DNA of 64,000 nucleotides from Escherichia coli (GTDB lineage Bacteria; Pseudomonadota; Gammaproteobacteria; Enterobacterales; Enterobacteriaceae), in assembly GCF_003019035.1 (NCBI RefSeq), contig NZ_CP027447.1; one strand, 5' to 3'. Below are positions 21,435 to 57,700 of the stretch, one piece after another. Both the position numbers and the translations under genes were made by a program. The notes under the pieces are model-generated. The model was not told the origin of the DNA, did no database searches, and saw nothing but the letters and a program-made list of their open reading frames with translations. The stretch's first letter is position 1. Each line of letters begins with the position of its first letter.

Positions 21435-21440
21435 ATTCCT
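21435..21440. repeat. Left target-site duplication (ATTCCT; 5 or 6 bp)
   Basis: Identical ATTCCT immediately flanks the other prophage end at 57695..57700. Confidence 0.7.
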
Positions 21441-21483
21441 TGATCAGACATGAGATAAATGAAGGGGGATCCGTGAGATAAAT
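21441..21483. repeat. Left prophage end with putative transposase-binding repeats
   Basis: TGAGATAAAT at 21451 and 21474; inverted copy at the right end (57652..57661). Confidence 0.6.
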
Positions 21484-21801
21484 AACGAATTGGAGTGGGT
21501 TAACATGGGTTCTGGTGAACAGAACTGAAATTCTTTTTCGTTATACGATAGATAAGTCGGACATTGAAATCATCCTTTCTGGCAACTTAGAATCGAGTTT
21601 GCTGAAACATGACTCGTAACAAAAAGGATGATTCCAATGACTACTCAAAACAATAAGCATGATAGCCTGGATTACTCAGAAAAGCCCAAAAGCAAGCACA
21701 TCGTGACGTTCGAGCGCGATTCCGGTAGAAAAGGAGAATCGTCTTCCTCTGCCAATAAAAACACTATACCGGCAGCTCCTGCTCCGGGGAAAAAATAAAC
21801 A

Positions 21802-22434
21802 TCATTCATCGTTCGTTGCACGAACGCGCCTGATCTCCACTCTGGCAATCTGATCTGCTGGAATATAGGTTGCCAGAGCTCCCCAGTACTTATCAACCAC
21901 GCCTTTATACTCTTCCCATTCGTTACTGCCTGAAGGGCTGCTGTGTGTGACGTAAAGAACCATATCGCCTTTATTCCCCAGGGTAAACGGACCGTTAGGC
22001 CACTCTTCAAAGTTCCCTGGCAGTCGTGACATCATACCGGAACCATCGCGAAGAATCACTCTGACCTCGGTGACGCTGAAGTCTGTTTGATCAAACATTG
22101 CCTGCCATGCTGAGCTGGTATCGTCAGACCATGAAATATCATTATTCCACAGTAATCTGTACATCCATTTGCGACCGTACCTGCGCCACCACGCACCACA
22201 TGTAACAGCACACAGAAGTGCTGGTGGTGTTGCCAGCCAGGCATTCAGACCTGCCCACATAACAGCCTGGTAAGCCATCATTGCTGTCAGGCCAAAAATT
22301 AGCGAAGAAAAAGTCACCTCAATGGGTTTGTGCTGATCCTTCAGCCCCACATTCGCAATAAAATACCCAATATAGCCACTGGTCAGAGTCACCAGTGTTG
22401 CCCATGGCAAATTTAACAACGAAACGTCAAACAT
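21802..22434 (-). CDS. Hypothetical membrane protein (three predicted TM helices plus ~130 aa soluble domain); terminal moron
   Basis: ORF with GGAG RBS before MFDVSLLNL; lies between the mor terminator and the prophage left end; lower GC than neighbouring phage genes. Confidence 0.55.
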   Translation of the reverse strand: MFDVSLLNLPWATLVTLTSGYIGYFIANVGLKDQHKPIEVTFSSLIFGLTAMMAYQAVMWAGLNAWLATPPALLCAVTCGAWWRRYGRKWMYRLLWNNDISWSDDTSSAWQAMFDQTDFSVTEVRVILRDGSGMMSRLPGNFEEWPNGPFTLGNKGDMVLYVTHSSPSGSNEWEEYKGVVDKYWGALATYIPADQIARVEIRRVRATNDE

Positions 22435-22472
22435 ATTTTCTCCCTGCATCCTGAATACTACAGAGAGAGCAT

Positions 22473-22504
22473 AAAAAAAGCACGGTAAGGGGTCTACCGT
22501 GCTT
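22473..22504 (-). terminator. Rho-independent terminator downstream of mor
   Basis: Stem agcacggta/taccgtgct followed by a U7 run on the minus-strand transcript. Confidence 0.7.
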
Positions 22505-22548
22505 TTATACAATAAGGAGATTTTTGAAAGGACTTTAACAAGCAGGAA

Positions 22549-22947
22549 TTATCTGGATTTGTTAACGTCTCTCGTCTCTTCTGGCAGATCTTCATCAAAC
22601 AACCTGCCCTGCATCCGATCCAGTTCTTCTTTTCTGACCCGCTTAACCACGCTGTAGACCCACTGAAGCGAAACACCAAACTTGCGGGCCAGTTCATGGT
22701 GGTTGCGTCCGTTAAACTCCCGGAAGATTTCCCGGTCGCGCTGACTGACCTTCCATACCATGCCCATCGGGAAATAAACGTTTTGCCCGCCCCAGACCTG
22801 CATCATGCGGTTCGCGACGGCCTGACCAATCTGGTCGGCAATTGCGGGCTCAATATCAATAATCTCGCGAACGGTCTCAGAGGTATGCTGTGCCAGTTCC
22901 ACCAGGAGTTCCGGCCCTTTACTTCGAAACTGATTCAGGTCGCTCAT
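22549..22947 (-). CDS. mor: Mor/C-family middle/late transcription activator
   Basis: IFREFNGRNHHELARKFGVSLQWVYSVVKRVRK closely resembles the conserved Mu Mor C-terminal HTH region. Confidence 0.75.
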   Translation of the reverse strand: MSDLNQFRSKGPELLVELAQHTSETVREIIDIEPAIADQIGQAVANRMMQVWGGQNVYFPMGMVWKVSQRDREIFREFNGRNHHELARKFGVSLQWVYSVVKRVRKEELDRMQGRLFDEDLPEETRDVNKSR

Positions 22948-23371
22948 GTTTTACTCCCGCAGCTCTGCGCTGCCACTTCTTCAGTTTCTCAATAACACTG
23001 CTTGCCTGTTCTGTATTGAGCCAGCGCAGGGCGCTGATGCCCGTTTCCCGCTTGATCCACCGCGCTAATGCATTTTCTGAACGGTCACGAACAATGCCGG
23101 CAGCAGCCATTTCAAGCCATAGCGCACGGATTTTCCTGGACTGCGGATGGTTATCCAGCGGTAAACCGGAGCTGGCTTTTCCGGCAGGCTTAACGCGAAA
23201 GCCTTTCCTTTTCATGGATTCCAGCACGCAGTTTAGTTGTGTGGTATCCATTCCTTTGGTTGAGGCTTTACCGGTCAGCCCCTGTAACATCTGGCGGTAG
23301 GTGTCTTCATCCATACCCAGTTCATTACGGGCAATATGAATGAGCTGGATAAGACGTTGTTTAGTCATCAT
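22919..23371 (-). CDS. GemA-like (Mu gp16 family) protein
   Basis: Position immediately upstream of mor as in Mu; start codon uncertain (track ORF extends to 23410). Confidence 0.5.
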   Translation of the reverse strand: MMTKQRLIQLIHIARNELGMDEDTYRQMLQGLTGKASTKGMDTTQLNCVLESMKRKGFRVKPAGKASSGLPLDNHPQSRKIRALWLEMAAAGIVRDRSENALARWIKRETGISALRWLNTEQASSVIEKLKKWQRRAAGVKHERPESVSK

Positions 23372-23576
23372 CGTTGCTCCTTTTACCTGCGCCACCGATA
23401 TAATCGACATATAAAGGAAGCGCCACAGGCCAGCACAGGAACATCACCGACCAGCTAATCCAGTAGCCGGCACCACTGTAACGTGAATAAAACCCTGAAC
23501 GGCGGTGCAGTTCAGCAGTACACCAACCGACAAAACAATACCAGAACAGGGCACATACAACAGATTCAGCCGTCAT
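23361..23576 (-). CDS. Small hypothetical membrane protein (~71 aa, two hydrophobic segments)
   Basis: MTAESVVCALFWYCFVGW...; GGGGGA RBS; overlaps neighbouring genes in the early operon. Confidence 0.4.
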   Translation of the reverse strand: MTAESVVCALFWYCFVGWCTAELHRRSGFYSRYSGAGYWISWSVMFLCWPVALPLYVDYIGGAGKRSNDDD

Positions 23577-23796
23577 TCTGAATATCCCCCCAACTGATAT
23601 GAATATTACGGGCAGCAATGACAGGGTCGTTATCCCACCATGCACCTGACATGTATTTTTCAACCTGTTCGCGTCCGGCAATAACACCAATTGTGATCCC
23701 CGGCCTGACGTTCTTAAAAAAGGCGCGGGCAAAAAGGTATCTGGCAGATATTCGGCAGGCTTTTAATTTCCGGCTGTTACCTGATAGCGTAATCAT
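23566..23796 (-). CDS. Hypothetical early protein (76 aa)
   Basis: ATGA start/stop overlap with the upstream gene. Confidence 0.35.
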   Translation of the reverse strand: MITLSGNSRKLKACRISARYLFARAFFKNVRPGITIGVIAGREQVEKYMSGAWWDNDPVIAARNIHISWGDIQNDG

Positions 23797-24476
23797 CTGG
23801 CCTCCAGTTTCTGTTGTTCCTGCCCACTGACCGGGCGGTGCAGTCTGACGTTCTGCCCTTCACGAAACCCCGCATAGCGCGAGGCGTCACCATTGCGGCT
23901 TCTTCCCGGTTTACGCGCCCTGGTGGTTTGCGTTTGCGGGTATTTATGTTCCAGCCACTGCTGCATCAGTTCACGTTCGTCATCAGTCAGGGCGAAGGAC
24001 TGTATTTCACTGATAACGGCCAGCACCCAGCCTTCAGCAAACTGGTCTCCACGGCTGGTGCGGGTGGCGGTTTTTATTCTTTTGTTCTGTGTGCTGATAT
24101 ACTGCTGACGCGCCTTTTTCAGCTGGCGGGCCAGCACTTCCCAAGTGTACGCAGCCAGTGCGGCCCGTTCCCGGTTGCCGTAGAATCCCACACCCGGATA
24201 TGTGCCGGGGTGAATGATGGAGTTAACACCAAATGCCTCGCGGATGATGTTCATCAGGCCCAACATATAGCGCGGTGGACGGAGGCTGCCTGTCGGCCAG
24301 TAGTGGCTGATGGTTTCATCAATATCACTCATGGCAATGTCGGAATGTGTGATGCCGTGAACATCCATCAGTTTACGGGCACGGCGCAGTGCCAGAGCGG
24401 CCTCGTGCGGGTTGCCGGATGCAGCCAGCGCCAGCAGTTTTTTCAGTTTCTCAATGTGTTTATCCAGGTCTGTCAT
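23793..24476 (-). CDS. Hypothetical early protein (227 aa)
   Basis: Long ORF in the early operon; no recognisable catalytic motif. Confidence 0.5.
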   Translation of the reverse strand: MTDLDKHIEKLKKLLALAASGNPHEAALALRRARKLMDVHGITHSDIAMSDIDETISHYWPTGSLRPPRYMLGLMNIIREAFGVNSIIHPGTYPGVGFYGNRERAALAAYTWEVLARQLKKARQQYISTQNKRIKTATRTSRGDQFAEGWVLAVISEIQSFALTDDERELMQQWLEHKYPQTQTTRARKPGRSRNGDASRYAGFREGQNVRLHRPVSGQEQQKLEAR

Positions 24477-24778
24477 TGTTCGGTATCTCCGGTGTACATG
24501 ACGCCCAGCCGTGCGGCAAGGCGTTCCAGTTTTTTCTGTTTGTGGAAGTCAATCAGCCGGCCCATCCCCTGAAGACGCAACTGCTCTGTCATGATTTCCA
24601 CGTCTGCCAGCTCTGCCGCGAGGTCACTTTCGCTGCCCTGTCCGTTCAGGTTGCGGGCAGCACTGGCCGCCAGTTCGGCGGCCTCTTCTGTCAGTTTCAG
24701 GGCCTGTGCATCCGGCCCGAAACGCTGCAGAGCCAGACGATAGAGGGCAGTGCGTGTGAGTATGGTGTTCCGTGTCAT
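24473..24778 (-). CDS. Small all-alpha NTP pyrophosphohydrolase-like (MazG-like) protein
   Basis: LTEEAAELAASAARN...LAAELADVEIMTEQL resembles the paired E-rich helices of MazG-type domains. Confidence 0.45.
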   Translation of the reverse strand: MTRNTILTRTALYRLALQRFGPDAQALKLTEEAAELAASAARNLNGQGSESDLAAELADVEIMTEQLRLQGMGRLIDFHKQKKLERLAARLGVMYTGDTEQ

Positions 24779-24787
24779 GCCGCGCCC

Positions 24788-25060
24788 TCAGTGCTTCCGG
24801 TCGACGGTGATGTGCAGGCCGCCTTCTGCAGTGGTTTCCATCCGGTACGGCACCTCATGCTCTGCCGTGTGGGTGAGTGTGTTCACCAGTACCTGCAGGG
24901 CAGCCTCCTTTCCGTTGGTCGTCACAATGGCCTGAGCGGCCATGCTGATTAGCGCTGTCAGGACGTGCTTCACATCGGTGAGGTCGCGGCATTCACACTC
25001 GTTGACATAGTGTTCAACAAGGGTTCGGGTGCGCTGTCGTGCTTCCTGTGGGGTAATCAT
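24788..25060 (-). CDS. Hypothetical early protein (90 aa)
   Basis: ORF in the early operon. Confidence 0.4.
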   Translation of the reverse strand: MITPQEARQRTRTLVEHYVNECECRDLTDVKHVLTALISMAAQAIVTTNGKEAALQVLVNTLTHTAEHEVPYRMETTAEGGLHITVDRKH

Positions 25061-25251
25061 TGCGAGTCCTCCCTGTCAGGGCGGGAGAATTCCATGACGG
25101 GCACGTCCGCTGAAAAATGTTGGCTGCAGTACGGACAGACCAGGGTGACGCGCACTGCAGGTACGTGGTACTTACCGGACATCACGGCGATGGCGCTGTG
25201 AAAACGCAGGGCTGTTATATCCCTCTCGCACTGAATACATTTAAATATCAT
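25057..25251 (-). CDS. Small zinc-ribbon protein (64 aa)
   Basis: Two CxxC pairs (CIQC ... CPYC). Confidence 0.45.
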   Translation of the reverse strand: MIFKCIQCERDITALRFHSAIAVMSGKYHVPAVRVTLVCPYCSQHFSADVPVMEFSRPDREDSQ

Positions 25252-25348
25252 GATTTAATTCTCCTCTGTTTCCGGCGTGCAGAAGCCCACGGCGCTGACG
25301 CCGGAATAAAAAAGAAAATGTTTTTATTAAATAATTAACGTGGTGTGT

Positions 25349-25879
25349 TTACTGCACATCCTGCTCAAAAGGAATTATTGAAAAATCCTCAATATCACTT
25401 TTTATGGTAATACCGGGAATATTTTTCACGGCCTCTTTTTCATTCAGAATGGCATCTTTATTTATTTCCTCTTTTACACGAATAAAGCGCTCAAGCCCCA
25501 GACGTCTCAGTAGTTCAATAACATTATCCGCTCCACGGATACTGACTGATGGCGGACGGTTTCGCCACTGCACCTCGCCGGTGGTGAGGTTAGCGAACTT
25601 CACCTTCCCGTTGCCGGTCAGTTCATCACGGTGTGCCTCACACCATGTCTGAATACCGGACTGCAGTTCGGCCATGCGTTTTTTCAGGCTCTCGGTGAGC
25701 GGGGCATAACGTGCGGTGATATCGCCAATGGCGTCATTCATTTCTGTTTCAGCCCTGACCAGTTCACGTTGTGCGTCACCGAGCAGTCTGATTCCCTCAA
25801 TGACCTCTTCGCGTGTCCCCGGTACCCAGAGTGCCGCTGCGGACTTGATACGTTTTGCCCCTTTTGTACTTTTTGCCAT
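25349..25879 (-). CDS. gam: Gam-like host-nuclease inhibitor (DNA-end binding)
   Basis: 176 aa; AKRIKSAAA, RPPSVSIRG and GITIKSDIEDFSIIPFEQ closely match Mu Gam. Confidence 0.85.
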   Translation of the reverse strand: MAKSTKGAKRIKSAAALWVPGTREEVIEGIRLLGDAQRELVRAETEMNDAIGDITARYAPLTESLKKRMAELQSGIQTWCEAHRDELTGNGKVKFANLTTGEVQWRNRPPSVSIRGADNVIELLRRLGLERFIRVKEEINKDAILNEKEAVKNIPGITIKSDIEDFSIIPFEQDVQ

Positions 25880-25906
25880 ATCTTATGATTTCTCCGGTTG
25901 TGCTGA

Positions 25907-26176
25907 TTACCACAAAGATTCCGGCCACACGACGCGACAGCCGTGCAGTTCGAAAACGCCCTGACGGAAATATCCCCTGTGGTCATGTCCGGTATACAGA
26001 TAACAGGCCTTTCCCTGCTCAAGCATGCGCATGCAATGCGCACTTCGGGAAACGCGGATGACAGGTTTGTTACCCCTGATGGTGATGCTTTGTACATCCG
26101 TGTTCGTCGCCTTAAGCGCCATAATGGCTGACTGCACTTTGCTGATTTGCTGGTTGATACCTGTGGTGGATTTCAT
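25907..26176 (-). CDS. Hypothetical early protein (89 aa) in the position of Mu kil
   Basis: ORF immediately downstream of B. Confidence 0.4.
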   Translation of the reverse strand: MKSTTGINQQISKVQSAIMALKATNTDVQSITIRGNKPVIRVSRSAHCMRMLEQGKACYLYTGHDHRGYFRQGVFELHGCRVVWPESLW

Positions 26177-26178
26177 TA

Positions 26179-27345
26179 TTAAACCCCTTTGACAACGTCA
26201 GCGTTGACCTGTGGAACCCCGATTTCAGCGGCCAGATTCATGGCGGCTATCACCAGGTTACTGACGGCCAGCGGATACAACAGGCTGACCATATTTTTAC
26301 GATGACTTCCCGGATTGCTCAGGCGGGCACGTATGGCATCCACTGCACTGGCGTCCATAATGTCCGTCAGTTGTTTACCTGCCCGTTGCAGTTTGAACGT
26401 CAGAAACTCTTCAAGGTTATTGTCCAGAGGCAGAAGTTCGACCACCTCACAGCGCTGAACGACTTCACGGACTTCCATATTGCGTTCAGACAGTTTTGTC
26501 GCCAGTTCCGGCTGGCCAATCAGCACGATGGACAGCAGTTTTTTGAAACCGGACTCCAGCTCAAAAAAGCGTTTGAGGTGTTTCAGTGTCGGAATGGGCA
26601 GACTGTGGGCCTCCTCAATCACCAGAACGTGGCTGAACCCCGCCTGGCTGCTGTCTTTCAGGACGCGATGCAACTGGCGAAAGCGGGCGTCCTGACTGCG
26701 TCTGATGCTTTCCAGTGGTGCGATGGTACTGATAATGGCTTCGGCAATAGCTGCTGCCTTCAGGGTTTTCCCTTTCACATCGTTGTCTTCCATAGCGATG
26801 ATGTATGGCTCGATAACAATTACCGGCGCATTCTCGCGGTTGATACGTTCAGTCAGGTCGCGGCGCAGCGTGGATTTACCCGCACCGGACTCACCGATGA
26901 CGGCCATAAACCCACCATGACGGGCTGTCTGGTACAACGCCTCACGCACGTAGCGAATGTCCGGGGTGGTGAACACATCATCAGAACCCTGCATGGCTTC
27001 GTCGGCGAACGGGTCACGGAAAAGACCAAACGCTTTTTTGGTTGCTGGAAATAACACCTGTTTTTTGAGTAACATATTCTCTTCCTCACTGAGGCTCGTT
27101 TTATCTGTGGTACCCGCTGTACGGGGCGTGGCCGCGCCCTGTACAGCATCAAAACTCTTCGCTGTATCAATCCCCTGACTTTCCAGCCAGGACGCAAGAC
27201 GCCGGCGCACTTCTCCGGGGCTGGTGCGGGGCCACGCGTTATGATTCACAATCTGGGCCAGCGTGGCCTCAGAAACATCGACAGCTCTCGCCACCACCGC
27301 CTGTGGAATACGGGCCTCTTTCAGTTGCTGCTTCAGTACCAGCAT
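26179..27345 (-). CDS. Transposition ATPase (Mu B-like AAA+ protein)
   Basis: Walker A GESGAGKST; N-terminal HTH-like region; GAGGAGG RBS; immediately downstream of the transposase. Confidence 0.8.
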   Translation of the reverse strand: MLVLKQQLKEARIPQAVVARAVDVSEATLAQIVNHNAWPRTSPGEVRRRLASWLESQGIDTAKSFDAVQGAATPRTAGTTDKTSLSEEENMLLKKQVLFPATKKAFGLFRDPFADEAMQGSDDVFTTPDIRYVREALYQTARHGGFMAVIGESGAGKSTLRRDLTERINRENAPVIVIEPYIIAMEDNDVKGKTLKAAAIAEAIISTIAPLESIRRSQDARFRQLHRVLKDSSQAGFSHVLVIEEAHSLPIPTLKHLKRFFELESGFKKLLSIVLIGQPELATKLSERNMEVREVVQRCEVVELLPLDNNLEEFLTFKLQRAGKQLTDIMDASAVDAIRARLSNPGSHRKNMVSLLYPLAVSNLVIAAMNLAAEIGVPQVNADVVKGV

Positions 27346-27355
27346 GTTTCCCTCC

Positions 27356-29125
27356 TCAGTTGCCGTTAACAATGCTGATAACGCTGCTGCGGGCCGGCGT
27401 GGTCAGCGTGGCCATGACTTCATCCAGTGCGGCTTCCGGTACGCCGTCCGGGTACTGTGCCGTTAACTGGCGGTAATGTTCCGGCGTCCAGGTAAGGCCG
27501 TCGGCGCTGAACTTATCGCGCAGGGCTTTCGCGGCCTCCACATGAGTCATGGGACGTTGTTCAGTGCGCGGTCTGCGTACATCAGAGGCCTGACCGCGCT
27601 TCGGTATACAGGCCGGAAGTGTGGCGTCATCAATATGTTTATACGGGTCAAGCCGCCCGCCGAACGGCAGCGCCTTCGCCTTGCGTGCGGCAGCTGCATC
27701 TGCGGCGTTGTCTGTACCGGTGACCAGCGCTTCGGTTTCTTTTGCCGCCGTCTGTGCCGGTGTTTCCGGCAGGGCTTTGTAACTTTCGCCAAATACCGCC
27801 GCGCCTTCAGCAAAGCCAAACTCGTTCTTTCTGACCTCTTCGACCAGGAAGAACGTCTCGTGGCCGTCCTCACCGGTCAGAACCACCTGTGCCACATCGC
27901 TGCGCCATGGGTTACGGGTAATCATCAGTTTTTCACCAACCAGTACGCCCGGTACCGTTGATACGTCAAATTCAGTGCCCCGGAACGAGACACGAAGTTT
28001 TGGCGTGACTTTGCGGAGTTCTGGTGTCGTCACAGCCAGTTCACGGCATACCTCAACGGAAGGCGCTTTTTTCAGCTGCTCAGCAGTAATCTTCAGCCAG
28101 ATATCCGTGCGGGTTTTACCGTGGCGGCTGTGAACAGCTGTTGCGTTAAAGTGGCTACGCCATTTCGCGGCCAGCGCGTTGAGTTCTTCCAGACTGTGAA
28201 CCGGCCGGAACTTCAGACCCGGCTCCAGCTTGCGTTCGATAATGTCACGCGCCTTTTCCACCTGTCCGGTGGCGCGGGCGTTATGCGGCTTGTGCGCTAT
28301 CAGGTCGATGCCCAGTGAGCGGCACATGTTTTTCGTCATACCCGCGGTGTTTGCCGAGCCGGGGTCGAGATAGAGTATTTTCGGCACGCCGTGCAGCACG
28401 TCTGCGCCGCCACGCTCCTGCATGGCGTTGATAAGCACAGAACACAGGTTCTCACCGGATTCCGCACCCGTCACATACTCAACGTAAATCCAGCCGCTGG
28501 CATGGTCGGTAATCTCGTAACTCCACACGCGGTCACTGGCGATACGGGCAAGGTTAGCGGGCTTGTTCTTGTAGAACTTCGCGCTGTCCATCACCTGCAG
28601 CCCTTTGTGTCCATTGCTCAGGTAGTAAAGCGTGCAGAGAGAGGCATCAATCTGCCAGACATGATTGGGATGCAGACTGGCCACTTCGGTATGCGGCGCA
28701 GGGGCATCCAGTTGTTCCGGGTGCAGGCCATAGTTACGCAGGGCACGGCTGATAGCATCTTCGGACAACGGGAAAAACTCACCGGTGGTTTCATCTGTTC
28801 TGCCTGCGGAGATAAAGCCGTTAGCCCGCAGGGTTTCCACTGCATCTGCGATGGAATAGAGACGCTTACCGTTCTTGCGGGTGGCCTCACGTAGTGTGGC
28901 AGATATCAGCGCGGCTTCGTCGCGGGTCAGGGCGCTGCGCCCGGCATCGGCGCGTTTTTTGCGTTTATCAGTCACAGAGACCTCCTTCAGCCTGCGCAGC
29001 AGAGTGGCGCGGGACATGCCAAGTTCAGCACAGGCGGCGTCATATATTGCACCACGTTTACCATGCCCCGCGTCACGTGCCGCGCGGGCGACATAAACCA
29101 GTCGTTCAGTCAGGGCAGCATTCAT
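27356..29125 (-). CDS. DDE transposase (Mu A-like)
   Basis: 589 aa; N-terminal HTH-like region, integrase-core motifs (HVWQIDAS, YLDPGSANT). Confidence 0.8.
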   Translation of the reverse strand: MNAALTERLVYVARAARDAGHGKRGAIYDAACAELGMSRATLLRRLKEVSVTDKRKKRADAGRSALTRDEAALISATLREATRKNGKRLYSIADAVETLRANGFISAGRTDETTGEFFPLSEDAISRALRNYGLHPEQLDAPAPHTEVASLHPNHVWQIDASLCTLYYLSNGHKGLQVMDSAKFYKNKPANLARIASDRVWSYEITDHASGWIYVEYVTGAESGENLCSVLINAMQERGGADVLHGVPKILYLDPGSANTAGMTKNMCRSLGIDLIAHKPHNARATGQVEKARDIIERKLEPGLKFRPVHSLEELNALAAKWRSHFNATAVHSRHGKTRTDIWLKITAEQLKKAPSVEVCRELAVTTPELRKVTPKLRVSFRGTEFDVSTVPGVLVGEKLMITRNPWRSDVAQVVLTGEDGHETFFLVEEVRKNEFGFAEGAAVFGESYKALPETPAQTAAKETEALVTGTDNAADAAAARKAKALPFGGRLDPYKHIDDATLPACIPKRGQASDVRRPRTEQRPMTHVEAAKALRDKFSADGLTWTPEHYRQLTAQYPDGVPEAALDEVMATLTTPARSSVISIVNGN

Positions 29126-29128
29126 TGG

Positions 29129-30043
29129 TTATGCCTCCAGCCCGTTAATCTGTGGCGTCGGCTCAGTCAGCCATGAAGGCGCGACATCGCCTGTTGGCTC
29201 GTCCGGCAGGTCAAATGTGGAGCGCAGGCTACGCGCTGTGCTTTCCAGTTGACAGACCAGGCCTGCCATGAAGTCTCTGGGGGTATCAATCATGTTTTCA
29301 GCACAATATGCGCACAGCGTCTCAAAAGCGCTGGACAGTCGAACGGCGATAGCAGATTCCGCCTCAACCGCTAATGCTGTCACTTCCGCCCGCAGCTTCT
29401 TAACCTCTTCATCAGGCTCAGGCGGCTGAATACGGGATTTCTTCTCCAGTTTTGTGGAAAGCGAGTCGATTTTTTCGTTTTTGTCGGCCAGCACGCGCTG
29501 TTGTGCTGCGTTGGTTTCGCGGGCTTCGCGCAGGGCCTGACGCAATTCACGTACTGACATGCGATCAACGTCGTCAAGCGTCAGGCCGGCAACTGTGCCG
29601 CCGTCGGCCAATTCATCAAGTTCTTCATTATCCAGAACCATCAGGTCGTACAGTTTGGCTTTCCCCAAAACGCTCAACGTTGAGCGTTTTGTTGGCTCAT
29701 CACCTTCTCCCAAAAACTTCATACTGGCTTGCATCATGCGGCGAGCAACTTGTGGTGCAAGTCCGAGTTCATTTTCTAAAATGTTTGTAAAATCACCGTG
29801 TGGCTCATTTTCTTTTAAGATGATCAGCCGTTTACCCGCTTCCAGCATAGATTCAGCACTCTGCGCCATATAAAAACGTGCTTCGTGAACAATGCGATCA
29901 CGTTCATAAGGCAGTCCATCACCAAACTGCTGCATAATTTCCATGCGATGCTGTGTCATAGCGTTCAAATTGACATTGATGTTATCTGACAGCGGAACCT
30001 CAACATTCAGTTCAGTGTTAACGGGTGATTTGGTGCGTCCCAT
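29129..30043 (-). CDS. Hypothetical conserved early protein (304 aa, coiled-coil C-terminal half)
   Basis: ORF between the Ner-like genes and the transposase. Confidence 0.5.
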   Translation of the reverse strand: MGRTKSPVNTELNVEVPLSDNINVNLNAMTQHRMEIMQQFGDGLPYERDRIVHEARFYMAQSAESMLEAGKRLIILKENEPHGDFTNILENELGLAPQVARRMMQASMKFLGEGDEPTKRSTLSVLGKAKLYDLMVLDNEELDELADGGTVAGLTLDDVDRMSVRELRQALREARETNAAQQRVLADKNEKIDSLSTKLEKKSRIQPPEPDEEVKKLRAEVTALAVEAESAIAVRLSSAFETLCAYCAENMIDTPRDFMAGLVCQLESTARSLRSTFDLPDEPTGDVAPSWLTEPTPQINGLEA

Positions 30044-30053
30044 TGATTACTCC

Positions 30054-30425: not shown

Positions 30426-30603
30426 TTGACGTGGGTTTTAATCCCAGTTTTACGGCAATTTCATGGGCTTTGCCGTAACGAGCTTTGGTCTGTCCATTGA
30501 GAACACGATAGACCTCATTGCGGCTGTAGCCGTGTTCTTCGGCCCAGCGGGTAAACGTGATACCACGCTGACGGAAGAGATTTTTAACTTGTTCGGAAGT
30601 CAT
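30415..30603 (-). CDS. Small HTH DNA-binding protein in the Ner position (first gene of the early operon)
   Basis: 62 aa with AGGAG RBS; divergent from the repressor gene. Confidence 0.55.
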   Translation of the reverse strand: MTSEQVKNLFRQRGITFTRWAEEHGYSRNEVYRVLNGQTKARYGKAHEIAVKLGLKPTSNAA

Positions 30604-47484: not shown

Positions 47485-47577
47485 CAACGTATCACTTAAC
47501 AGCCGCCAGTCGCGGCTGTTCTGCATGGGTTTCAGACACTTCCCTTCCGTTTTTTTTGCTTTCAGAGGATAGCCACC

Positions 47578-50043: not shown

Positions 50044-50927
50044 TGTTTGCCGTACTGGGTGATATTGAGTTTGAACTGATTACCTACTGGGACGGCTTCG
50101 AGGCCACGTTTGGCGTCGATTATGCGGAGCATGCCCGCATCGAGGGTAAACCCGGCCTGCAGTTCGTCGGCGACAGGCTGGACGAAATCCAGATAAGCCT
50201 GGTCTTCCATCAGCATTATTGTGTGCCCGACGTGGAGCTGGCGAGAGTGCGAACAGCCATGAAGGCCCATCAGGCACTGGCGCTGGTCTTCGGCAACGGT
50301 GACTATCGCGGCTGGTTCGTGATTACCGATGTGACCGCAACCAGCGAGCAGACAGACAGCACCGGTAACGTGCTGGCTGTCAGTGCCACCGTGTCTCTCC
50401 GGGAATACACCGGTGACCCGAAAAATCCTCTGCAACCGCCGGCAATACGCAGGCAGGTTCCCGGTGCCGGGGCCGTATCTGGTGCTGTTCCATCGCCTTC
50501 CGGGGTGGCGCAGTTCGTCCGTAACGGCGTCAACTATGCGAAACAGGCGCAGTCTGTACTCCAGACCACCATCAGTGCCGTTCGGGTGGCACAGAAAATG
50601 AAGGGTAACCCTGTTGTCGCGCTGACCCGTGTACCGGGACTGATGAGCGGACTGGGTAATATATCCGTGGCTCTGGGGAAAAGTGTTCCGGCGTTTAATG
50701 CACTCTCTGAATCCATGCCCGATGCCATCAGTCTGGCCAGAACAGCCAGTGAGGCAGCCACGTATGTACAGCAGGCGCAGTCGGCGCTGAGTGGTGTGGA
50801 CAAAAGAAATATTGCAGGTGCTCTGGATACCGTTTCCGGGCAGCTTAACGCCGCCGGCACAGCATTCAACCGCATGTCTCCGGGATTAAGTGCAATGGCC
50901 GCCAGAATACTGACGAGGAGTGTGTGA
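50043..50927 (+). CDS. Tail protein (P2 gpU / Mu gpN-like, by position)
   Basis: 294 aa immediately after the tape measure. Confidence 0.5.
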   Translation: MFAVLGDIEFELITYWDGFEATFGVDYAEHARIEGKPGLQFVGDRLDEIQISLVFHQHYCVPDVELARVRTAMKAHQALALVFGNGDYRGWFVITDVTATSEQTDSTGNVLAVSATVSLREYTGDPKNPLQPPAIRRQVPGAGAVSGAVPSPSGVAQFVRNGVNYAKQAQSVLQTTISAVRVAQKMKGNPVVALTRVPGLMSGLGNISVALGKSVPAFNALSESMPDAISLARTASEAATYVQQAQSALSGVDKRNIAGALDTVSGQLNAAGTAFNRMSPGLSAMAARILTRSV

Positions 50928-51139
50928 TGTTTCTTGAACATATTACCCGTGACGGAGAGCGCTGGGATTCGCTGGCATGGCAGTACTACGGTGACCCGCT
51001 GGGCTATCCCCGGATTATTGCAGCCAATCCGCACGTGGCCATTACGCCGGTGCTGCCCTCCGGGTTGTTGTTACTGATCCCGGTTATTGAGGCTGAAGAT
51101 GCCCGTACAGAAGAGGATATTGCCCCATGGCTGAGATAA
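50924..51139 (+). CDS. Tail protein X (LysM-like)
   Basis: 71 aa resembling P2 gpX. Confidence 0.6.
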   Translation: MMFLEHITRDGERWDSLAWQYYGDPLGYPRIIAANPHVAITPVLPSGLLLLIPVIEAEDARTEEDIAPWLR

Positions 51140-52281
51140 ACAGTACTGCGCAAGCCACATCAGCGTTAACCGGCGTCAGCGATGTGCTGACGCCGGTATT
51201 CACTCTGTGGTATCTGCAGAAAAACATCACCTCTGATATCGCGCCTTATGTCACCCGTGTGGTCTGGAGCGATAACATCAAAAATGAGTCCGATACCATT
51301 GAGGTGGAGCTGGACGACACCGATGGCCGCTGGCTGGATAAGTGGTATCCGGGCAAGGGTGACACGCTGACGCTGAAAATGGGTTATCAGGGCGAGAAAC
51401 TGCTGTCCTGCGGTACATTCTCAATAGACGAGATCGAAGTGAGTTCGCCCGCGTCCGTTGTCGCTATCCGTGGGGTGGCCACCTCGGTTAACAGTGCTCT
51501 GCGGACTAAATCCAGCCGTGGTTTTGAGAACACCACGCTGGCAGCTGTTGCGGGGCGGATTGCCAGAAAGCACCGGCTGAAACTGGTGGGCAGCATTGAG
51601 TCCATCAGAATCGACCGGGTGACCCAGTATGCTGAAACCGACGTGGGTTTTCTGCGCCGGCTGGCCAGCGAGTATGGTTATGCAGTGAAAGTGGTCAGTG
51701 ACCAGTTGATTTTTTCTCATCTGGCCACACTGCGCAGTCAGGAGCCGGTCAGGCAGTTAAAACCGCAGGATGTGGCCTGCTTTTCCCTGCGTGACACCAT
51801 CAACCGGGTCTATAAATCTGCAAAGGTAAAACACCAGAAAAGCAGCAGTAAAAAACTGATCGTCTACGAAGCTGATGGTGGTACCCGTGAAAGCGACAAA
51901 AAGCTCAAAGGCGGTAAGGTTACCAGCGCTGACTCACTTAAAGTTAACAGCCGCGTCAGCGACCCGGACAGTGCCCGGATTAAAGCGGATTCAGCACTGG
52001 CCAGACATAACGAATACCAGCAGAACGGCTCCCTGACGCTGACGGGAACGCCTCAACTGACAGCAGGCAACAAAATTGAACTGGTGGGCTTTGGACAGTT
52101 ATCCGGTCCATGGCTGATAATCACTGCCCGCCATGCGTTTGAGCGTAACAGCGGCTACACCACAGAGCTGGAAGTGGCACGGGGGCCAGTCACAAGAGGG
52201 AAAAAACAAAAAACTCAGAAACTCACGGTTTATCACCCGGATGGCAGTACATCGACGGTGATTAAGGAGAAGAAAAAATGA
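51127..52281 (+). CDS. Baseplate hub (P2 gpD / Mu gpP-like)
   Basis: 384 aa; position between X-like and spike genes. Confidence 0.7.
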   Translation: MAEINSTAQATSALTGVSDVLTPVFTLWYLQKNITSDIAPYVTRVVWSDNIKNESDTIEVELDDTDGRWLDKWYPGKGDTLTLKMGYQGEKLLSCGTFSIDEIEVSSPASVVAIRGVATSVNSALRTKSSRGFENTTLAAVAGRIARKHRLKLVGSIESIRIDRVTQYAETDVGFLRRLASEYGYAVKVVSDQLIFSHLATLRSQEPVRQLKPQDVACFSLRDTINRVYKSAKVKHQKSSSKKLIVYEADGGTRESDKKLKGGKVTSADSLKVNSRVSDPDSARIKADSALARHNEYQQNGSLTLTGTPQLTAGNKIELVGFGQLSGPWLIITARHAFERNSGYTTELEVARGPVTRGKKQKTQKLTVYHPDGSTSTVIKEKKK

Positions 52282-52805
52282 CTGGTGTCACCCGTCAGAT
52301 CGGTACGGTCAGTGCCGTTGATGCCGACAGGGTTCAGGCCCGCGTTCGTCTGCCTGAATGCGATAATCTGCGCACAAACTGGCTTAACGTGCTACAGCGC
52401 AATACCCAGGATAACAAGGATTACTGGCTCCCTGACGTGGGGGAGCAGGTTGAGGTGCTGCTCGATGCCAACGGCGAGGATGGTGTTATTCTGGGCGCGG
52501 TGTACTCAGACGTCGATAAACCGCCGTTCAGTGATAAAAACGTCCGGGGTACGAAATACGCTGATGGCGCGGAGTTCAGTTATAACCGCGCGACCCATAC
52601 GCTGACGGTCAGAGGAGGTATTGAGCGTATCGTGGTGGAGGTTGCCGCTGATATCTCTCTCAAAGGGAAAAAACTCGACCTCACGGGAGTTACCACGATC
52701 AACGGCCCCGCGACACTCAATGGTGATCTGGAAATCAACGGAAGCGCCCATGCAACGGGTAACATATTTGCTGATGGTCAGAACTCTAATCACCATTCCC
52801 ATTGA
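52278..52805 (+). CDS. Baseplate spike (P2 gpV-like)
   Basis: 175 aa; position. Confidence 0.7.
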   Translation: MTGVTRQIGTVSAVDADRVQARVRLPECDNLRTNWLNVLQRNTQDNKDYWLPDVGEQVEVLLDANGEDGVILGAVYSDVDKPPFSDKNVRGTKYADGAEFSYNRATHTLTVRGGIERIVVEVAADISLKGKKLDLTGVTTINGPATLNGDLEINGSAHATGNIFADGQNSNHHSH

Positions 52806-52861
52806 ACCTTCTTAAACGCCTTTAATATCGGCGCTTACTTCCCGGGGGCAATACTGCCTCC

Positions 52862-53209
52862 ATGAAAACGACCTCAGTATTCTGGCAACCAGCTCTGCAG
52901 GCTCCCGGCGAAATCGTCCGGGGGCTGGATGATATCCGGCAGTCCATCCAGATCATCCTGCGGACTCCCCGCGGCAGCGACCCGCATCGCCCGGAGTTCG
53001 GCAGCAATCTGCACCTTTATATCGACTGGCCTGTCGACCGGGCCATTCCGCATGTGGTTCGCGAATCCGTCGATGCCATCAGGCGCTGGGAACCCCGCTG
53101 CCAGCTTATGTCGGTTAAACCCGCCGTCGACGGCGAACATCTTACGCTCCGGGTGAGCTGGAAAGGCTCAGACGGACAACCCCGTACTCAGGAACTGCTA
53201 TGGCGCTGA
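52862..53209 (+). CDS. Baseplate wedge (GPW/gp25-like)
   Basis: 115 aa; position. Confidence 0.7.
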   Translation: MKTTSVFWQPALQAPGEIVRGLDDIRQSIQIILRTPRGSDPHRPEFGSNLHLYIDWPVDRAIPHVVRESVDAIRRWEPRCQLMSVKPAVDGEHLTLRVSWKGSDGQPRTQELLWR

Positions 53210-54303
53210 CAGAACCCGATTTTATTGAACGCGATGCCGATAAAATCACGGCAGAAATGATTGCGAAGTATGAAGAGGATACCGGAAAAACGCTGTACCC
53301 GGCACAGGCTGAACGTCTGCTGATTGACCTGTGGGCCTATCGCGAAATGCTGGTCAGGGTGGCAGTACAGGAGGCGGCGAAGCAGAATCTGGTCGCTTTT
53401 TCCCGTGAGCCGATGATTGATTACCTCGGTGAACTGGTCGGTGTATACCGCCTTGCCGCGCAGCCTGCCACCACCACACTTCAGTTCTCTGTGGATGAGG
53501 CACTGGCCATTGATGTGCTGATCCCGGCAGGCACCCGCGTCAGCGCTTCCGACAGTATTATTTTTGCCACCGATACAGACGTGGTGCTGAAGGCCGGATT
53601 GCTGCTGGTCAATGTCACGGCCACCTGTACCGAGCCGGGTACCGCTGGCAACGGCTGGCAACCGGCGCAGGTCAGTCAGTTACTCGATGAGATTGATAAC
53701 ATTGACCTGCTGGTGACCAATCTGACGGCCAGCTCTGGCGGTTCAGAGCAGGAAGACGATGACCGGCTCCGGGAGCGTATCAGGCTGGCCCCGGAGTCAT
53801 TCACCAATGCCGGAAGCCGTGGTGCATACCGTTTTCATGCTATGGGGGCGCATCCCGGCATTGTCGACGTTGCTGTTCTTTCTCCCGCTCCCGGCACTGT
53901 CGAGCTGTATCCGCTGCTCAGCACTGGTCTGCCGGACAGCAGTATCCTCACTCTGGTAGAGAGTTTCTGTTCTGACGAAAAAGTCAGACCACTCACTGAT
54001 ACCGTGCGGGCTAAAACACCTGTTCAGGTGGATTACACCATTGAAGCCAGGATTACGATCTATCGTGATCAGGATGCAAGGTTGGTAAAGGACAACGCTA
54101 ACAGCGCCATACAGAACTGGGTGGCATCCCGTACCGCCACGCTGGGGCGCGATATTGTTCCCAGCCAGATTATCAGCGTGTTGTCCGTTTCCGGGGTGTA
54201 CCAGGTCGAACTGGTGACACCGGCACTGAGGGTGGTGGCAGAAAACGAATGGGCAAACTGTACGGCGATCACTCTTAACATGACCGGGGTGTCCGATGGC
54301 TAA
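53200..54303 (+). CDS. Baseplate J-like protein
   Basis: 367 aa; position. Confidence 0.75.
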   Translation: MALTEPDFIERDADKITAEMIAKYEEDTGKTLYPAQAERLLIDLWAYREMLVRVAVQEAAKQNLVAFSREPMIDYLGELVGVYRLAAQPATTTLQFSVDEALAIDVLIPAGTRVSASDSIIFATDTDVVLKAGLLLVNVTATCTEPGTAGNGWQPAQVSQLLDEIDNIDLLVTNLTASSGGSEQEDDDRLRERIRLAPESFTNAGSRGAYRFHAMGAHPGIVDVAVLSPAPGTVELYPLLSTGLPDSSILTLVESFCSDEKVRPLTDTVRAKTPVQVDYTIEARITIYRDQDARLVKDNANSAIQNWVASRTATLGRDIVPSQIISVLSVSGVYQVELVTPALRVVAENEWANCTAITLNMTGVSDG

Positions 54304-54874
54304 GGTGCTACAACTCCCGCCACCGCTTGAGGGTGATATCAGTCTCAGAACGCTGGGAAGACTGGCCGGACGGCTGGATAACATCGACCTGAGCGTACTG
54401 ATGGTCGGTCTCGTCGATATTGTCGACAGTTCCGCGCTGCCATGGCTTGGCGAGCAGTTCTCGCTGTTCGGCGATGGCTGGGAACTGGCGGAATCGGACG
54501 ATGTACGCCGCATGCTTATCAAATCCGCTATCGAGCTACACCGCTATAAAGGAACACCGTGGTCAATCCGGGAAATTATCCGCCGTTTTGGCTTCGGCGA
54601 AGTGGATCTGATTGAAGGTACGGGGCAGATTGGCTATGACGGCAGACACACGTACAACGGGCTTTTCGTCCATGGTGATGCACAAGCCTGGGCAGTCTAT
54701 CGCGTCATCTTTCAACAACCCATCACTAACGATCAGGCGGCGCTGTTACGTCAGACGCTTGCTGCCTTTGCTCCGGCTCGCTGTCATCTGGCAAGTCTGG
54801 AATATCAGTCTGTCGCCATTCGATACAACAGTACTACCTGTTATGACGGTAGTTACAACCACGGGAGCAGTTAA
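54296..54874 (+). CDS. Tail protein I (P2 gpI / Mu gp48-like)
   Basis: 192 aa; position before the fibre gene. Confidence 0.65.
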   Translation: MAKVLQLPPPLEGDISLRTLGRLAGRLDNIDLSVLMVGLVDIVDSSALPWLGEQFSLFGDGWELAESDDVRRMLIKSAIELHRYKGTPWSIREIIRRFGFGEVDLIEGTGQIGYDGRHTYNGLFVHGDAQAWAVYRVIFQQPITNDQAALLRQTLAAFAPARCHLASLEYQSVAIRYNSTTCYDGSYNHGSS

Positions 54875-54876: not shown

Positions 54877-55845
54877 ATGGCAAATCTACCCGAAACCCCG
54901 CAGTGGGAAAGCGGCATCTACCAGATTGAGGTCTCTGACCCCGTTCTGGGCGGACCTGACGGAATTTCTAACCGCCAGGCTAAACAACTGGCCAGCCGAA
55001 CGTCATACCTCAAACAGAAGGTCGAAAAAAGCGGAACAGACCTGGCTGCACATATCGCGGCAGTTGACCCGCATACCCAGTACGCGACGAAAGCCAGTCC
55101 GACATTCACCGGCACACCAACAGCACCTACACCTGCAAATGGTGATAACAGCAAAAAGCTGGCGACGACGGAGTTTGTGGCCAAAGCACTTGCGGCACTT
55201 GCAGGCAGCGCCCCTGAGACACTGGATACGCTTAAAGAGCTGGCTGACGCTCTCGGTAATGATCCAAACTTTGCGACTACGGTACTGAACAAGCTGGCGG
55301 AAAAGCTGGCTAAAGACCAGAACGGCGCAGATATTCCTGAGCCTGCGCTGTTTGTCAAAAACCTTGGTTTGGGGGAAGGCTCTGCACTGCCCGTTGGTGT
55401 GCCCGTTCCGTGGCCCTTAGCAACACCACCAACGGGCTGGCTGAAATGTAACGGTGCAGCATTTTCTTCTGAAATGTACCCCAAACTGGCAAAAGCCTAC
55501 CCCGCGAATAAATTACCGGATTTACGCGGAGAATTTATCCGTGGCTGGGATGATGGGCGAGGAATTGATGCGGCACGCGCTTTATTGAGCATTCAAAACG
55601 GGATGTTGGAAAAACACCGCCATATTGTTGTAGCTAACGATGGATATGACACAAAAGATGAATGGGAGTTGGCTACGATTTTCAAAAAAACATATACACA
55701 AGGCAGGGGGCTTGATGCCACAAATACAGGAGGGAGTTTGACTCCATCACCAACGCTTCATTCACGAGGAAGTATTGGTAACACAGGTGGTAGTGAAACC
55801 CGCCCCCGCAATATTGCATTTAACTATATCGTGAGGGCGGCTTAG
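54877..55845 (+). CDS. Tail fibre protein (constant N-terminus plus invertible C-terminal variant 1)
   Basis: 322 aa; tail-collar-like domain (GWLKCNGAAFSSEMYPKLAKAY...LPDLRGEFIRGWDDGRGID); C-terminal part lies inside the invertible segment. Confidence 0.8.
   Translation: MANLPETPQWESGIYQIEVSDPVLGGPDGISNRQAKQLASRTSYLKQKVEKSGTDLAAHIAAVDPHTQYATKASPTFTGTPTAPTPANGDNSKKLATTEFVAKALAALAGSAPETLDTLKELADALGNDPNFATTVLNKLAEKLAKDQNGADIPEPALFVKNLGLGEGSALPVGVPVPWPLATPPTGWLKCNGAAFSSEMYPKLAKAYPANKLPDLRGEFIRGWDDGRGIDAARALLSIQNGMLEKHRHIVVANDGYDTKDEWELATIFKKTYTQGRGLDATNTGGSLTPSPTLHSRGSIGNTGGSETRPRNIAFNYIVRAA
55352..55377. other. Left invertase crossover site (gix/hix-like)
   Basis: TTGTCAAAAACC-TT-GGTTTGGGGGAA; outer half-site matches the Hin/Gin half-site TTATCAAAAACC. 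Confidence 0.7.
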
Positions 55846-55851
55846 TTATAT

Positions 55852-56469
55852 TCAACTGGCTGCTGCCAGAGGCATTTCCGGCCAGTTGATATCCGGTGCA
55901 GTGCTGATGTCAGTCGCATTAAGCACATCTATGAAATCAAGCACGGCGTTTAGTTTTTCCGTCTCCTGGGGCGTCAATCGGCGTCCGGCTCGTAGTTTGA
56001 GATTTATAAGCTCAACAGATGCCATTGCCTGTTCCTCAAGTTGCTGACGATGCACTCCGGCAGCTTCCAGTTCTGCTGCGTGCTGTCGTCCCGCATCTGT
56101 CACCCAGGTCTCACCATCCCAGACATCATAGATAGTAGCTGGCTGTTTCACCGTCGTATCAGGAGGGTAATCTCCCGGTTGTGTGATTTGCACAGCGTTA
56201 CCATTCTCTGTGCTGTAAACCGTTTCGCCTCTGTGGTCTGGAACATATTTCCAGATGTTCTGGTCGGTATCACGACAGACAGCGAAGCCGGGGCGTTTTT
56301 CTGGTGGCGCGTCAATGCATGAGTGAGCCGGAATTCCAACACCATAAGCGAGATACTCAACAGTGGCAGAGAGATATTCACGGTTTTCAGCATCGTAGTT
56401 ATAAACGGTAATATCGCCTGCAGTTATAGCGATACCATTCTGATCAAGTACTGCAGCAGCATTATTCAT
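55852..56469 (-). CDS. Tail fibre assembly protein (Tfa)
   Basis: 205 aa; C-terminal TDISTAPDINWPEMP resembles the Tfa motif DTSTAPDIEWP. Confidence 0.8.
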   Translation of the reverse strand: MNNAAAVLDQNGIAITAGDITVYNYDAENREYLSATVEYLAYGVGIPAHSCIDAPPEKRPGFAVCRDTDQNIWKYVPDHRGETVYSTENGNAVQITQPGDYPPDTTVKQPATIYDVWDGETWVTDAGRQHAAELEAAGVHRQQLEEQAMASVELINLKLRAGRRLTPQETEKLNAVLDFIDVLNATDISTAPDINWPEMPLAAAS

Positions 56470-56966
56470 TAAGTAGCCCTTACAATATAGTTAAACGCAA
56501 TATTACGGGGGCGGTTTTCCGTTCCTGTATTCCCTCCGTTGGCACCTAATCTATAAACACCACGAGTGCCAATAGCACGTAGTGAAGATGGAACTTTTAC
56601 ACCTGACTCATCTGTTTTAACAATCCCGCCATCACCGTATGTAGCCAGTATACCAGGGTTTGTTCCTGCACGGGTGCTATTTGCGGCAAGCCCTTCACCA
56701 GTCCATAACTCCATATAGTGAATATGATCTATAACCGAATGTGATTGTGCATTAAGCAAGGAACGCCCTGAATCAATTCCCCGCCCGTCATCCCAGCCGC
56801 GAATAAACTCACCCCGTAAATCCGGTAATTTATTCGCGGGGTAGGCTTTTGCCAGTTTGGGGTACATTTCAGAAGAAAATGCTGCACCGTTACATTTCAG
56901 CCACCCTGCTGGCGGTGTGGCTGAGGGCCACGGAACGGGCACACCAACGGGCAGTGCAGAGCCTTC
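56469..56966 (-). CDS. Alternative tail-fibre C-terminal cassette (expressed after inversion)
   Basis: Encodes the same tail-collar region (GEGSALPVGVPVPWP...RGWDDGRGID) followed by a different C-terminus. Confidence 0.7.
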   Translation of the reverse strand, partial: EGSALPVGVPVPWPSATPPAGWLKCNGAAFSSEMYPKLAKAYPANKLPDLRGEFIRGWDDGRGIDSGRSLLNAQSHSVIDHIHYMELWTGEGLAANSTRAGTNPGILATYGDGGIVKTDESGVKVPSSLRAIGTRGVYRLGANGGNTGTENRPRNIAFNYIVRAT

Positions 56967-56978
56967 CCCCAAACCAAC
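56953..56978. other. Right invertase crossover site (gix/hix-like)
   Basis: TTCCCCCAAACC-AA-CGTTTTCGTCTT; inner half-site is the inverted copy of the left inner half-site. Confidence 0.7.
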
Positions 56979-57043
56979 GTTTTCGTCTTAACTCCCACCT
57001 ATACCAGCTATGTATTTTTAACAAAACAAAGAGGATATTTTTC

Positions 57044-57616
57044 ATGCAAATTGGCTACATTCGTGTGTCAACAAATGACCAGAATACAGATTTACAACGA
57101 AACGCACTGAACTGCGCAGGATGTGAACTGATTTTTGAGGATAAAATCAGCGGAACAAAGTCAGCCCGACCGGGATTGAAAAAGCTGCTCAGAACGTTAT
57201 CAGAAGGAGATACGCTCGTTGTCTGGAAGCTGGACAGGCTGGGCAGAAGCATGAAACACCTCATCACTCTTATTGAGGAACTGCGGGAAAAAGGGGTTAA
57301 CTTCCGTAGTCTTACAGACAGCATTGATACGTCAACACCCATGGGACGTTTCTTTTTTCACGTCATGGGGGCTTTAGCGGAAATGGAGCGTGAATTAATA
57401 GTTGAACGAACACTGGCCGGACTTGAAGCAGCACGTGCACAGGGGCGTATTGGTGGACGTCGTCCGAAACTGACAAAAGAGCAACATGAACAAATAGCAA
57501 GGCTGATCAAAAATGGCTATAGCAGGAAACAGTTGGCAATTATTTACGATATCGGTATATCGACGATTTATCGTTATCACCCTGTAGAGGAACTTCAAAC
57601 TCAAGCTGAGTTGTAA
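57044..57616 (+). CDS. gin: Serine DNA invertase (Gin/Hin/Pin family)
   Basis: MQIGYIRVSTNDQNTDLQRNAL... with catalytic Ser in the YIRVST motif and C-terminal HTH; AAGAGGA RBS. Confidence 0.9.
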   Translation: MQIGYIRVSTNDQNTDLQRNALNCAGCELIFEDKISGTKSARPGLKKLLRTLSEGDTLVVWKLDRLGRSMKHLITLIEELREKGVNFRSLTDSIDTSTPMGRFFFHVMGALAEMERELIVERTLAGLEAARAQGRIGGRRPKLTKEQHEQIARLIKNGYSRKQLAIIYDIGISTIYRYHPVEELQTQAEL

Positions 57617-57651
57617 TTCTTTTTCTGATATTGAAATGCCGCGGCGATGTA

Positions 57652-57694
57652 ATTTATCTCACGGAAATAGGTACGTTTATCGCGCGGCGCATCA
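57652..57694. repeat. Right prophage end with putative transposase-binding repeat
   Basis: ATTTATCTCA (inverse of TGAGATAAAT) 33 bp inside the terminus, symmetric with the left end; terminus ...GCGCATCA. Confidence 0.6.
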
Positions 57695-57700
57695 ATTCCT
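57695..57700. repeat. Right target-site duplication (ATTCCT; 5 or 6 bp)
   Basis: Identical to 21435..21440. Confidence 0.7.

Follow-up and report, generated by a model that had tools for sequence, protein, structure and literature searches.

A BcepMu-like transposable prophage inserted with a 6-bp target duplication between ascB and hycI of Escherichia coli

What kind of element separates ascB from hycI on the Escherichia coli contig NZ_CP027447.1 (assembly GCF_003019035.1), and by which route did it enter the chromosome? The stretch of this contig that was analyzed, referred to below as the window, is 64,000 nt long and carries at this locus a prophage that an earlier note, made from the sequence alone, had called Mu-like. 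We conclude that the element is an intact BcepMu-like prophage, a member of that group of transposable myoviruses, and that it entered the chromosome by DDE transposition, a reading to which we give a probability of roughly 0.93.

The limits of the prophage can be set to the nucleotide. A perfect 6-bp direct repeat, ATTCCT, occupies positions 21435–21440 and 57695–57700 of the window (the left and right copies of the target-site duplication, neither assigned a strand), and the prophage fills the 36,254 bp between them (21441–57694, + strand), starting with TGATCAGACATGAGATAAATG and finishing with GCGCATCA, so that its termini read TG...CA. Both hexamers and both ends lie exactly where the earlier note had put them. 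The same note had reported TGAGATAAAT at 33 bp inside both termini, with an extra copy at the left end, and this is borne out by exact copies at 21451–21460 (+), 21474–21483 (+) and 57652–57661 (−): one begins 33 bp inside each terminus, the second left-end copy is at offset 10, and the remainder of the window contains none, for a chance expectation of about 0.1.

The state of the locus before insertion was reconstructed by joining two 500-nt pieces, one ending with the left ATTCCT and the other beginning just after the right one. The resulting 1,000-nt empty site is 100% identical to at least nine complete, prophage-free E. coli genomes, and at least 80% of it is covered in 1,140 genomes. Because a site with a single ATTCCT is found unaltered in prophage-free genomes, the duplication is not a chance match. 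In strain TCM3e1, the empty site is located within a hypothetical open reading frame (ORF) of 251 amino acid residues (WP_077902345) between ascB and hycI. The flanks of the prophage (window 1–21441 and 57695–64000, 27.7 kb) are collinear with TCM3e1 without gaps (99.1% and 98.2% identity), and the overlap of the two alignments is limited to the hexamer and one coincidental T. The comparison with prophage-free genomes that the earlier note had proposed thus returns one ATTCCT in a contiguous ORF. It also refines the position that the note had given: the insertion is indeed at the ascB-hycI locus, but its target is the 251-aa accessory ORF and not an intergenic gap. The prophage has split this ORF into a 3′ fragment at 21171–21440 (−) and a 5′ fragment at 57695–58186 (−), with the insertion point about 486 nt into the 756-nt gene, for which we found no Pfam match even at E ≤ 10. 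In K-12 MG1655, ascB and hycI are adjacent, as had been stated, and the 251-aa ORF is absent between them; K-12 is therefore unusable as an empty-site comparator, and its map is not the right reference at this position. The empty-site search also returned tens of additional matching places per genome because of a REP-like palindromic repeat, GCCGGATGCGGCGTGAACGCCTTATCCGGCCTAC, at about 21085–21135 of the window, between ascB and the target ORF.

Among 5,426 complete E. coli genomes, 1,647 contain the left-end sequence, at many loci, and in these the homology sets in at window position 21441 or no more than a few bases from it; the ascB-hycI insertion junction of the window prophage occurs in none of the 5,426. 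Six further prophages were examined, located in rhaS, in sfaA, in an amino-acid permease gene, in ssuB, in the ybaP-ybaQ region and in a gene of the phosphopentomutase/alkaline-phosphatase family. All six start with TGATCAGACATG and end with CGCGGCGCATCA, termini identical to those of the window prophage, and they are flanked by the exact 6-bp duplications GATATT, ACTTCC, CATTCC, TCGAGA, ACACCT and ATATCC. An exact 6-bp duplication thus accompanies seven insertions out of seven (ATTCCT included), with seven different hexamers at unrelated loci. Identical termini combined with seven different duplications imply transposition with a 6-bp staggered cut and rule out an att core.

These observations bear directly on the possibility that a serine recombinase, or an integrase that escaped detection, inserted the element by site-specific recombination at ATTCCT acting as an att core. 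A serine recombinase is encoded at the right end and the direct repeat flanking the prophage is short, as such a mechanism would have it; yet the diversity of the hexamers already refutes this explanation, to which we attach practically no weight. Moreover, no tRNA or tmRNA gene lies in the window and no Rfam family reaches its gathering score there, while neither a tyrosine integrase nor a large serine integrase was found among the genes of the element as annotated by PHROGs searches. The 190-aa recombinase itself adjoins 212-nt inverted repeats with hix/gix-like sites in the fibre genes, the arrangement of an invertase. A tRNA-type att core at the boundaries was among the grounds that the earlier note had named for abandoning its interpretation; with no tRNA in the window and a flanking hexamer that differs at every locus, the interpretation survives this check. 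Among the seven duplications, C is found at position 5 in five and a pyrimidine at position 6 in six, a sample too small to establish a target preference.

The organization of the ends is also that of BcepMu. Four 23-bp repeats are present, two per end, and the copies of TGAGATAAAT are the repeat cores. At the left end (21441–21486, +), the tandem repeats L1 (TGATCAGACATGAGATAAATGAA) and L2 (GGGGGATCCGTGAGATAAATAAC) are presumed transposase-binding sites, a layout like that of BcepMu; at the right end (57649–57694, −), the tandem repeats read inward are R1 (TGATGCGCCGCGCGATAAACGTA) and R2 (CCTATTTCCGTGAGATAAATTAC). All four contain the core GNGNGATAWWT at the offsets seen in BcepMu, the ends of which consist of TGA followed by two 23-bp repeats with this same core (the 23-bp repeats of BcepMu have been described, PMC2920897). 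The core of R1 is degenerate (GCGCGATAAAC) and is found at the same offset as that of L1. The seemingly extra left copy of TGAGATAAAT is the core of the terminal repeat L1, whose right counterpart R1 is simply degenerate. GATC (Dam) sites are found within L1 (21442–21445) and L2 (21468–21471) and in neither R1 nor R2; a Dam methylase is encoded by many relatives and not by the window prophage.

The transposition genes point to the same family. The transposase gene (27356–29125, −) encodes a 589-aa DDE protein that is 68% identical to BcepMu gp9 over its full length (581 residues aligned, E = 0). Its only Pfam domain is rve, and the candidate catalytic residues D160, D254 and E290 lie within motifs conserved with gp9. 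Directly downstream and in the same direction, a gene at 26179–27345 (−) encodes an ExeA-like AAA+ ATPase, 59% identical to BcepMu gp8 and with AAA_22 as its only Pfam match, that presumably acts as the transposition target/activator protein, in the role of MuB without being a MuB homologue. From Mor at the left end through the tail fibre, the genes are collinear with those annotated in BcepMu. The element fits the published account of the BcepMu-like group, with an early cluster on the bottom strand, a Tn552/IS1604-type transposase, top-strand genes for lysis, head and P2-like tail, and a terminal CA (PMC2771037). Transposases of the B3/Tn552 family are reported to leave a 6-bp duplication, against 5 bp for Mu (PMC8705779).

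A true Mu-family prophage (Muvirus, with phages Mu, D108 and SfMu) relying on MuA/MuB-type transposition would share with the element its TG...CA termini, its homologues of Mor, GemA and Gam, its head and packaging genes of Mu type, and, by the right end, an invertible fibre segment of the Gin type. However, the transposase has no similarity to MuA (Mu gp3; BLASTP E = 0.48) and contains no Mu transposase or other Mu-specific Pfam domain, the ATPase has none to MuB (Mu gp4; E = 2.5), all seven insertions carry 6-bp duplications, the early operon has the inverse orientation, its transposase gene lying 6–8 kb in from the left end, and the tail genes resemble those of P2. None of four defining features of Muvirus was found, namely a MuA-type transposase, MuB, a 5-bp duplication and the left-end order c-ner-A-B with early transcription directed away from that end. 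A Muvirus assignment is thus refuted at the level of sequence, and we consider it very improbable. The "Mu-like" or "Mu-family" wording of the earlier note holds in the loose sense in which BcepMu is Mu-like, and not in the strict sense. MuA is also missing from the Protein Data Bank sequence matches of the transposase at E ≤ 1; for transposase and ATPase alike, the search for solved-structure relatives yielded none that is close, only marginal matches to the cores of retroviral integrases and to generic P-loop proteins. At 84–98% identity, the transposase-ATPase pair occurs as well on the plasmid records CP088398, CP054248, NZ_CP043512, NZ_CP132021 and NZ_CP151203, of which NZ_CP132021, a phage-sized E. 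coli "plasmid" of 40.5 kb, may be an assembled phage genome.

Placing the BcepMu-like prophage of the window among known phages makes both its affinities and its peculiarities apparent. With Burkholderia phage BcepMu (NC_005882, Bcepmuvirus) and phiE255 it shares, besides the transposase and the ATPase, a leftward early operon ending in Mor, a divergent repressor region, a holin-SLT-Rz cassette, a Mu-type head and a P2-type tail (PMC2771037, PMC2920897), as well as TG...CA termini with two 23-bp repeats per end. It differs from BcepMu in its enterobacterial host, in its Gin-type invertase and invertible fibre, which BcepMu is reported to be without (PMC2771037), in the absence of the acyltransferase found at the right end of BcepMu, and in a TerL that comes from another lineage. 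Mu (NC_000929) has in common with it a transposable lifestyle, TG...CA ends, Mor/C, GemA, Gam, Mu-like TerS, portal, F and G proteins, and, by the right end, an invertible tail-fibre segment of the Gin type, but differs by a transposase and an ATPase of unrelated sequence, a 5-bp duplication, three binding-site repeats per end instead of two, an early region in the opposite orientation and a tail that is not P2-like. Pseudomonas phage B3 and Tn552 share the rve-type DDE transposase, the AAA+ partner and the 6-bp duplication (PMC8705779), and the TerL allele of the window prophage belongs to the B3/RcapMu-like TerL lineage; B3 is nevertheless a siphovirus with Mu-like orientation of its early genes, and Tn552 is not a phage.

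At the nucleotide level, PhiKM, KP12, Phi06_2974 B and prophages in about 1,650 complete E. coli genomes are the same phage family. Escherichia phage PhiKM (PQ738613) comes from uropathogenic E. coli and is placed by NCBI in Bcepmuvirus; it matches about 80% of the element at 94–97% identity. Klebsiella phage KP12 (OM835952) and Escherichia phage Phi06_2974 B (KM389306) are 86–89% identical. Compared with PhiKM, KP12 and the E. coli prophages, the window prophage is a distinct mosaic that has its own immunity module, a swapped TerL and TerS C-terminus, a tape measure of lesser length, and fibre cassettes and a right-end sequence that differ from theirs. "BcepMu" prophages found with PHASTER-type tools have already been reported in uropathogenic E. 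coli genomes (PMC10955171).

No observation contradicts the identification as a BcepMu-like prophage, but three points are to be set against it. BcepMu is not among the megablast matches for 33 kb of the element, so that strict membership in its genus is doubtful although membership in the group is clear. The small repressor candidate matches nothing more specific than a helix-turn-helix (HTH)-type regulator, and inducibility by the SOS response can therefore not be assumed. Finally, as the invertible segment described below is now oriented, the sole fibre-assembly chaperone gene is antisense to late transcription.

The question of intactness was addressed by comparison with an intact relative, L004, which has 51 annotated genes. 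Full-length counterparts of 47 of them are present in the window prophage, most being 81–100% identical. The four exceptions are the repressor (a different allele), Dam (absent, with a 328-aa ORF instead), the tape measure (821 versus 1,070 aa) and TerL, and they are allele swaps or the replacement of an accessory gene rather than lesions. The identification could be right and this copy nevertheless dead or domesticated, incapable of induction, transposition or production of infectious particles. Decayed relatives exist, such as a copy of 30.2 kb in rhaS whose transposase is truncated, several relatives have broken tape-measure or fibre genes, and the window prophage itself combines an unusual TerL module with the lack of Dam and an antisense fibre chaperone. 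Against this stand the absence of any frameshift or truncation in the 47 genes, the replacement of the other four by alleles, a full-length TerL that resembles those of transposable phages and recurs in complete prophages, and perfect ends and duplication at an insertion that is absent from the 5,426 complete genomes and fits a recent event. We therefore regard a dead copy as unlikely, while giving this possibility real consideration.

TerL deserves separate attention. At 438 aa (36863–38179), it is shorter than the 500- to 531-aa proteins of BcepMu and the E. coli relatives, and a truncation was considered. This was rejected in favor of a module swap, as the alignment of TerL with BcepMu gp28 runs from end to end (24% identity, the same value as with the usual TerL of the family) and the same full-length 438-aa allele is annotated in 19 other complete E. 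coli genomes, in otherwise complete prophages. Its closest phage relatives are those of Pasteurella phage AFS-2018a (66%) and of Alteromonadaceae phage B23 and Rhodovulum phage P1 (61–63%), with B3 at 32%. The swapped module spans 36730–38179 and comprises TerL and the 3′ end of TerS, and the portal gene that flanks it is 99% identical to E. coli relatives. TerL is here a module exchange and not a lesion.

Mosaicism is also apparent elsewhere in the prophage. The first 7,489 bp (21441–28929) are 100% identical to the copy in rhaS of strain IAL7250 (NZ_CM130729), the 30.2-kb prophage mentioned above, which is internally deleted and whose remainder is only 68–97% identical to the window prophage. 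The lineage is thus a recent mosaic. The identical 7,489 bp, the perfect duplication and the unique insertion together suggest recent activity of the lineage.

These data lead us to propose the following course of events. The transposase would bind the two 23-bp repeats at each end, expose the 3′-OH of the terminal CA and join the ends to a target cut with a 6-bp stagger, the repair of the gaps giving rise to the ATTCCT duplication. The order of the genes suggests that a rightward repressor gene is opposed to the leftward early operon in a divergent control region, at about 30.6–31.1 kb, and Mor would switch on the rightward late genes for lysis, Mu-type head and packaging, P2-type tail and Gin-type invertible fibre. 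Upon induction, by analogy with BcepMu and Mu, repeated transposition would replicate the phage, and a headful mechanism would package it together with flanking host DNA.

What this copy represents beyond itself can be stated more tentatively. It is possible, at somewhat less than even odds in our judgment, that it belongs to a live, recently transposed, E. coli-adapted BcepMu-like lineage that is an under-appreciated mutagen in clinical E. coli, has its own 6-bp target preference and exchanges modules with other lineages of transposable phages, as exemplified by TerL. The notion of an insertional mutagen would rest on the copies that disrupt sfaA, rhaS, ssuB, the permease gene and the accessory ORF described here; that the family lands inside genes of clinical strains is documented by these copies. 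If this view is correct, the lineage would also make the Tn552-type branch of phage transposition tractable in an E. coli model; the transposase-ATPase pair is without a close relative of solved structure, and an apparently intact E. coli copy could serve as an experimental system. It is already known that this phage family is common in E. coli and has sequenced relatives, and the window prophage is an ordinary, well-bounded and apparently intact member of it. The exact ends and the 6-bp rule established here for the E. coli BcepMu-like lineage help delimit such prophages, which prophage finders often mis-bound or rate as "questionable" (PMC10955171).

The late genes are all rightward. A lysis cassette coding for a holin, an SLT-type endolysin and an Rz-like spanin (33963–35681, +) precedes the packaging and head genes (36312–43236, +), which code for TerS, TerL, the portal, Mu F-like and G-like proteins, a protease/scaffold and the major head protein. 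These are followed by the connector and a P2-like contractile tail (43246–54874, +) comprising the sheath, the tube, the 821-aa tape measure, gpU/X/D-like proteins and V/W/J/I-like baseplate proteins, then by the tail-fibre gene in its present orientation (54877–55845, +, 322 aa). With the Hin/Gin-type serine DNA invertase near the right end (57044–57616, +, 190 aa, phrog_125), PHROGs annotation recovered in full the transposition, lysis, head, tail and invertase sets that the earlier note had attributed to the element.

The layout of the fibre locus is that of a predicted Hin/Gin-type invertible tail-fibre switch. The invertible segment (55358–56983, no strand assigned) is bounded by 212-nt inverted repeats at 55358–55569 and 56772–56983 that are 93% complementary, and 26-bp hix/gix-like sites, AAAACCTTGGTTT and AAACCAACGTTTT, are located at its outer boundaries; the motif occurs three times in the window for 0.11 expected. 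The segment holds an alternative fibre C-terminus (56469–56972, −) and the only fibre-assembly chaperone gene (55852–56469, −); a single chaperone gene thus accompanies two alternative fibre C-termini, and one of its orientations may yield fibres without a co-transcribed chaperone.

On the opposite strand, the leftward early operon is ordered as follows: Ner-like protein, HTH regulator, DUF3102-type protein, transposase, ATPase, Gam, nucleoside triphosphate pyrophosphohydrolase, DUF2786 protein, GemA/gp16 and Mor. Its start (29129–30603, −) comprises the Ner-like HTH gene (30415–30603), the HTH regulator gene (30054–30362) and the DUF3102-type gene (29129–30043). Downstream of the transposition genes are found those for a Mu Gam-like DNA-end protection protein (25349–25879, −), a GemA/gp16-family protein (22919–23368, −) and, as the last gene of the operon, a Mor/C-type activator of late transcription (22549–22947, −), a position that corresponds to that of gp1 in BcepMu.

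Divergent from this operon is a variant immunity module (30690–32098, +) that is present in 126 complete genomes. It consists of the 141-aa HTH repressor candidate (30690–31115), for which PHROGs, NCBIfam and PADLOC gave nothing beyond an HTH-type regulator, and of a co-directional 328-aa ORF (31112–32098) assigned to phrog_10002, with a weak, sub-threshold Flk-like NCBIfam match at its N-terminus. The latter replaces the Dam methylase gene of the relatives and is a candidate accessory gene expressed in the lysogen. A defence or moron function was considered for the ORFs at 21637–22434, 29129–30043, 31112–32098 and 32223–33832 and was not retained, as PADLOC returned no match and the Flk-like match was the only one from NCBIfam. 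The first of these regions, at the prophage's left end, is a conserved accessory pair composed of a 53-aa ORF (21637–21798, +) and a 210-aa ORF (21802–22434, −, phrog_12870), and a 20-nt inverted repeat (21562–21581 and 21620–21639) is found just upstream of the 53-aa ORF.

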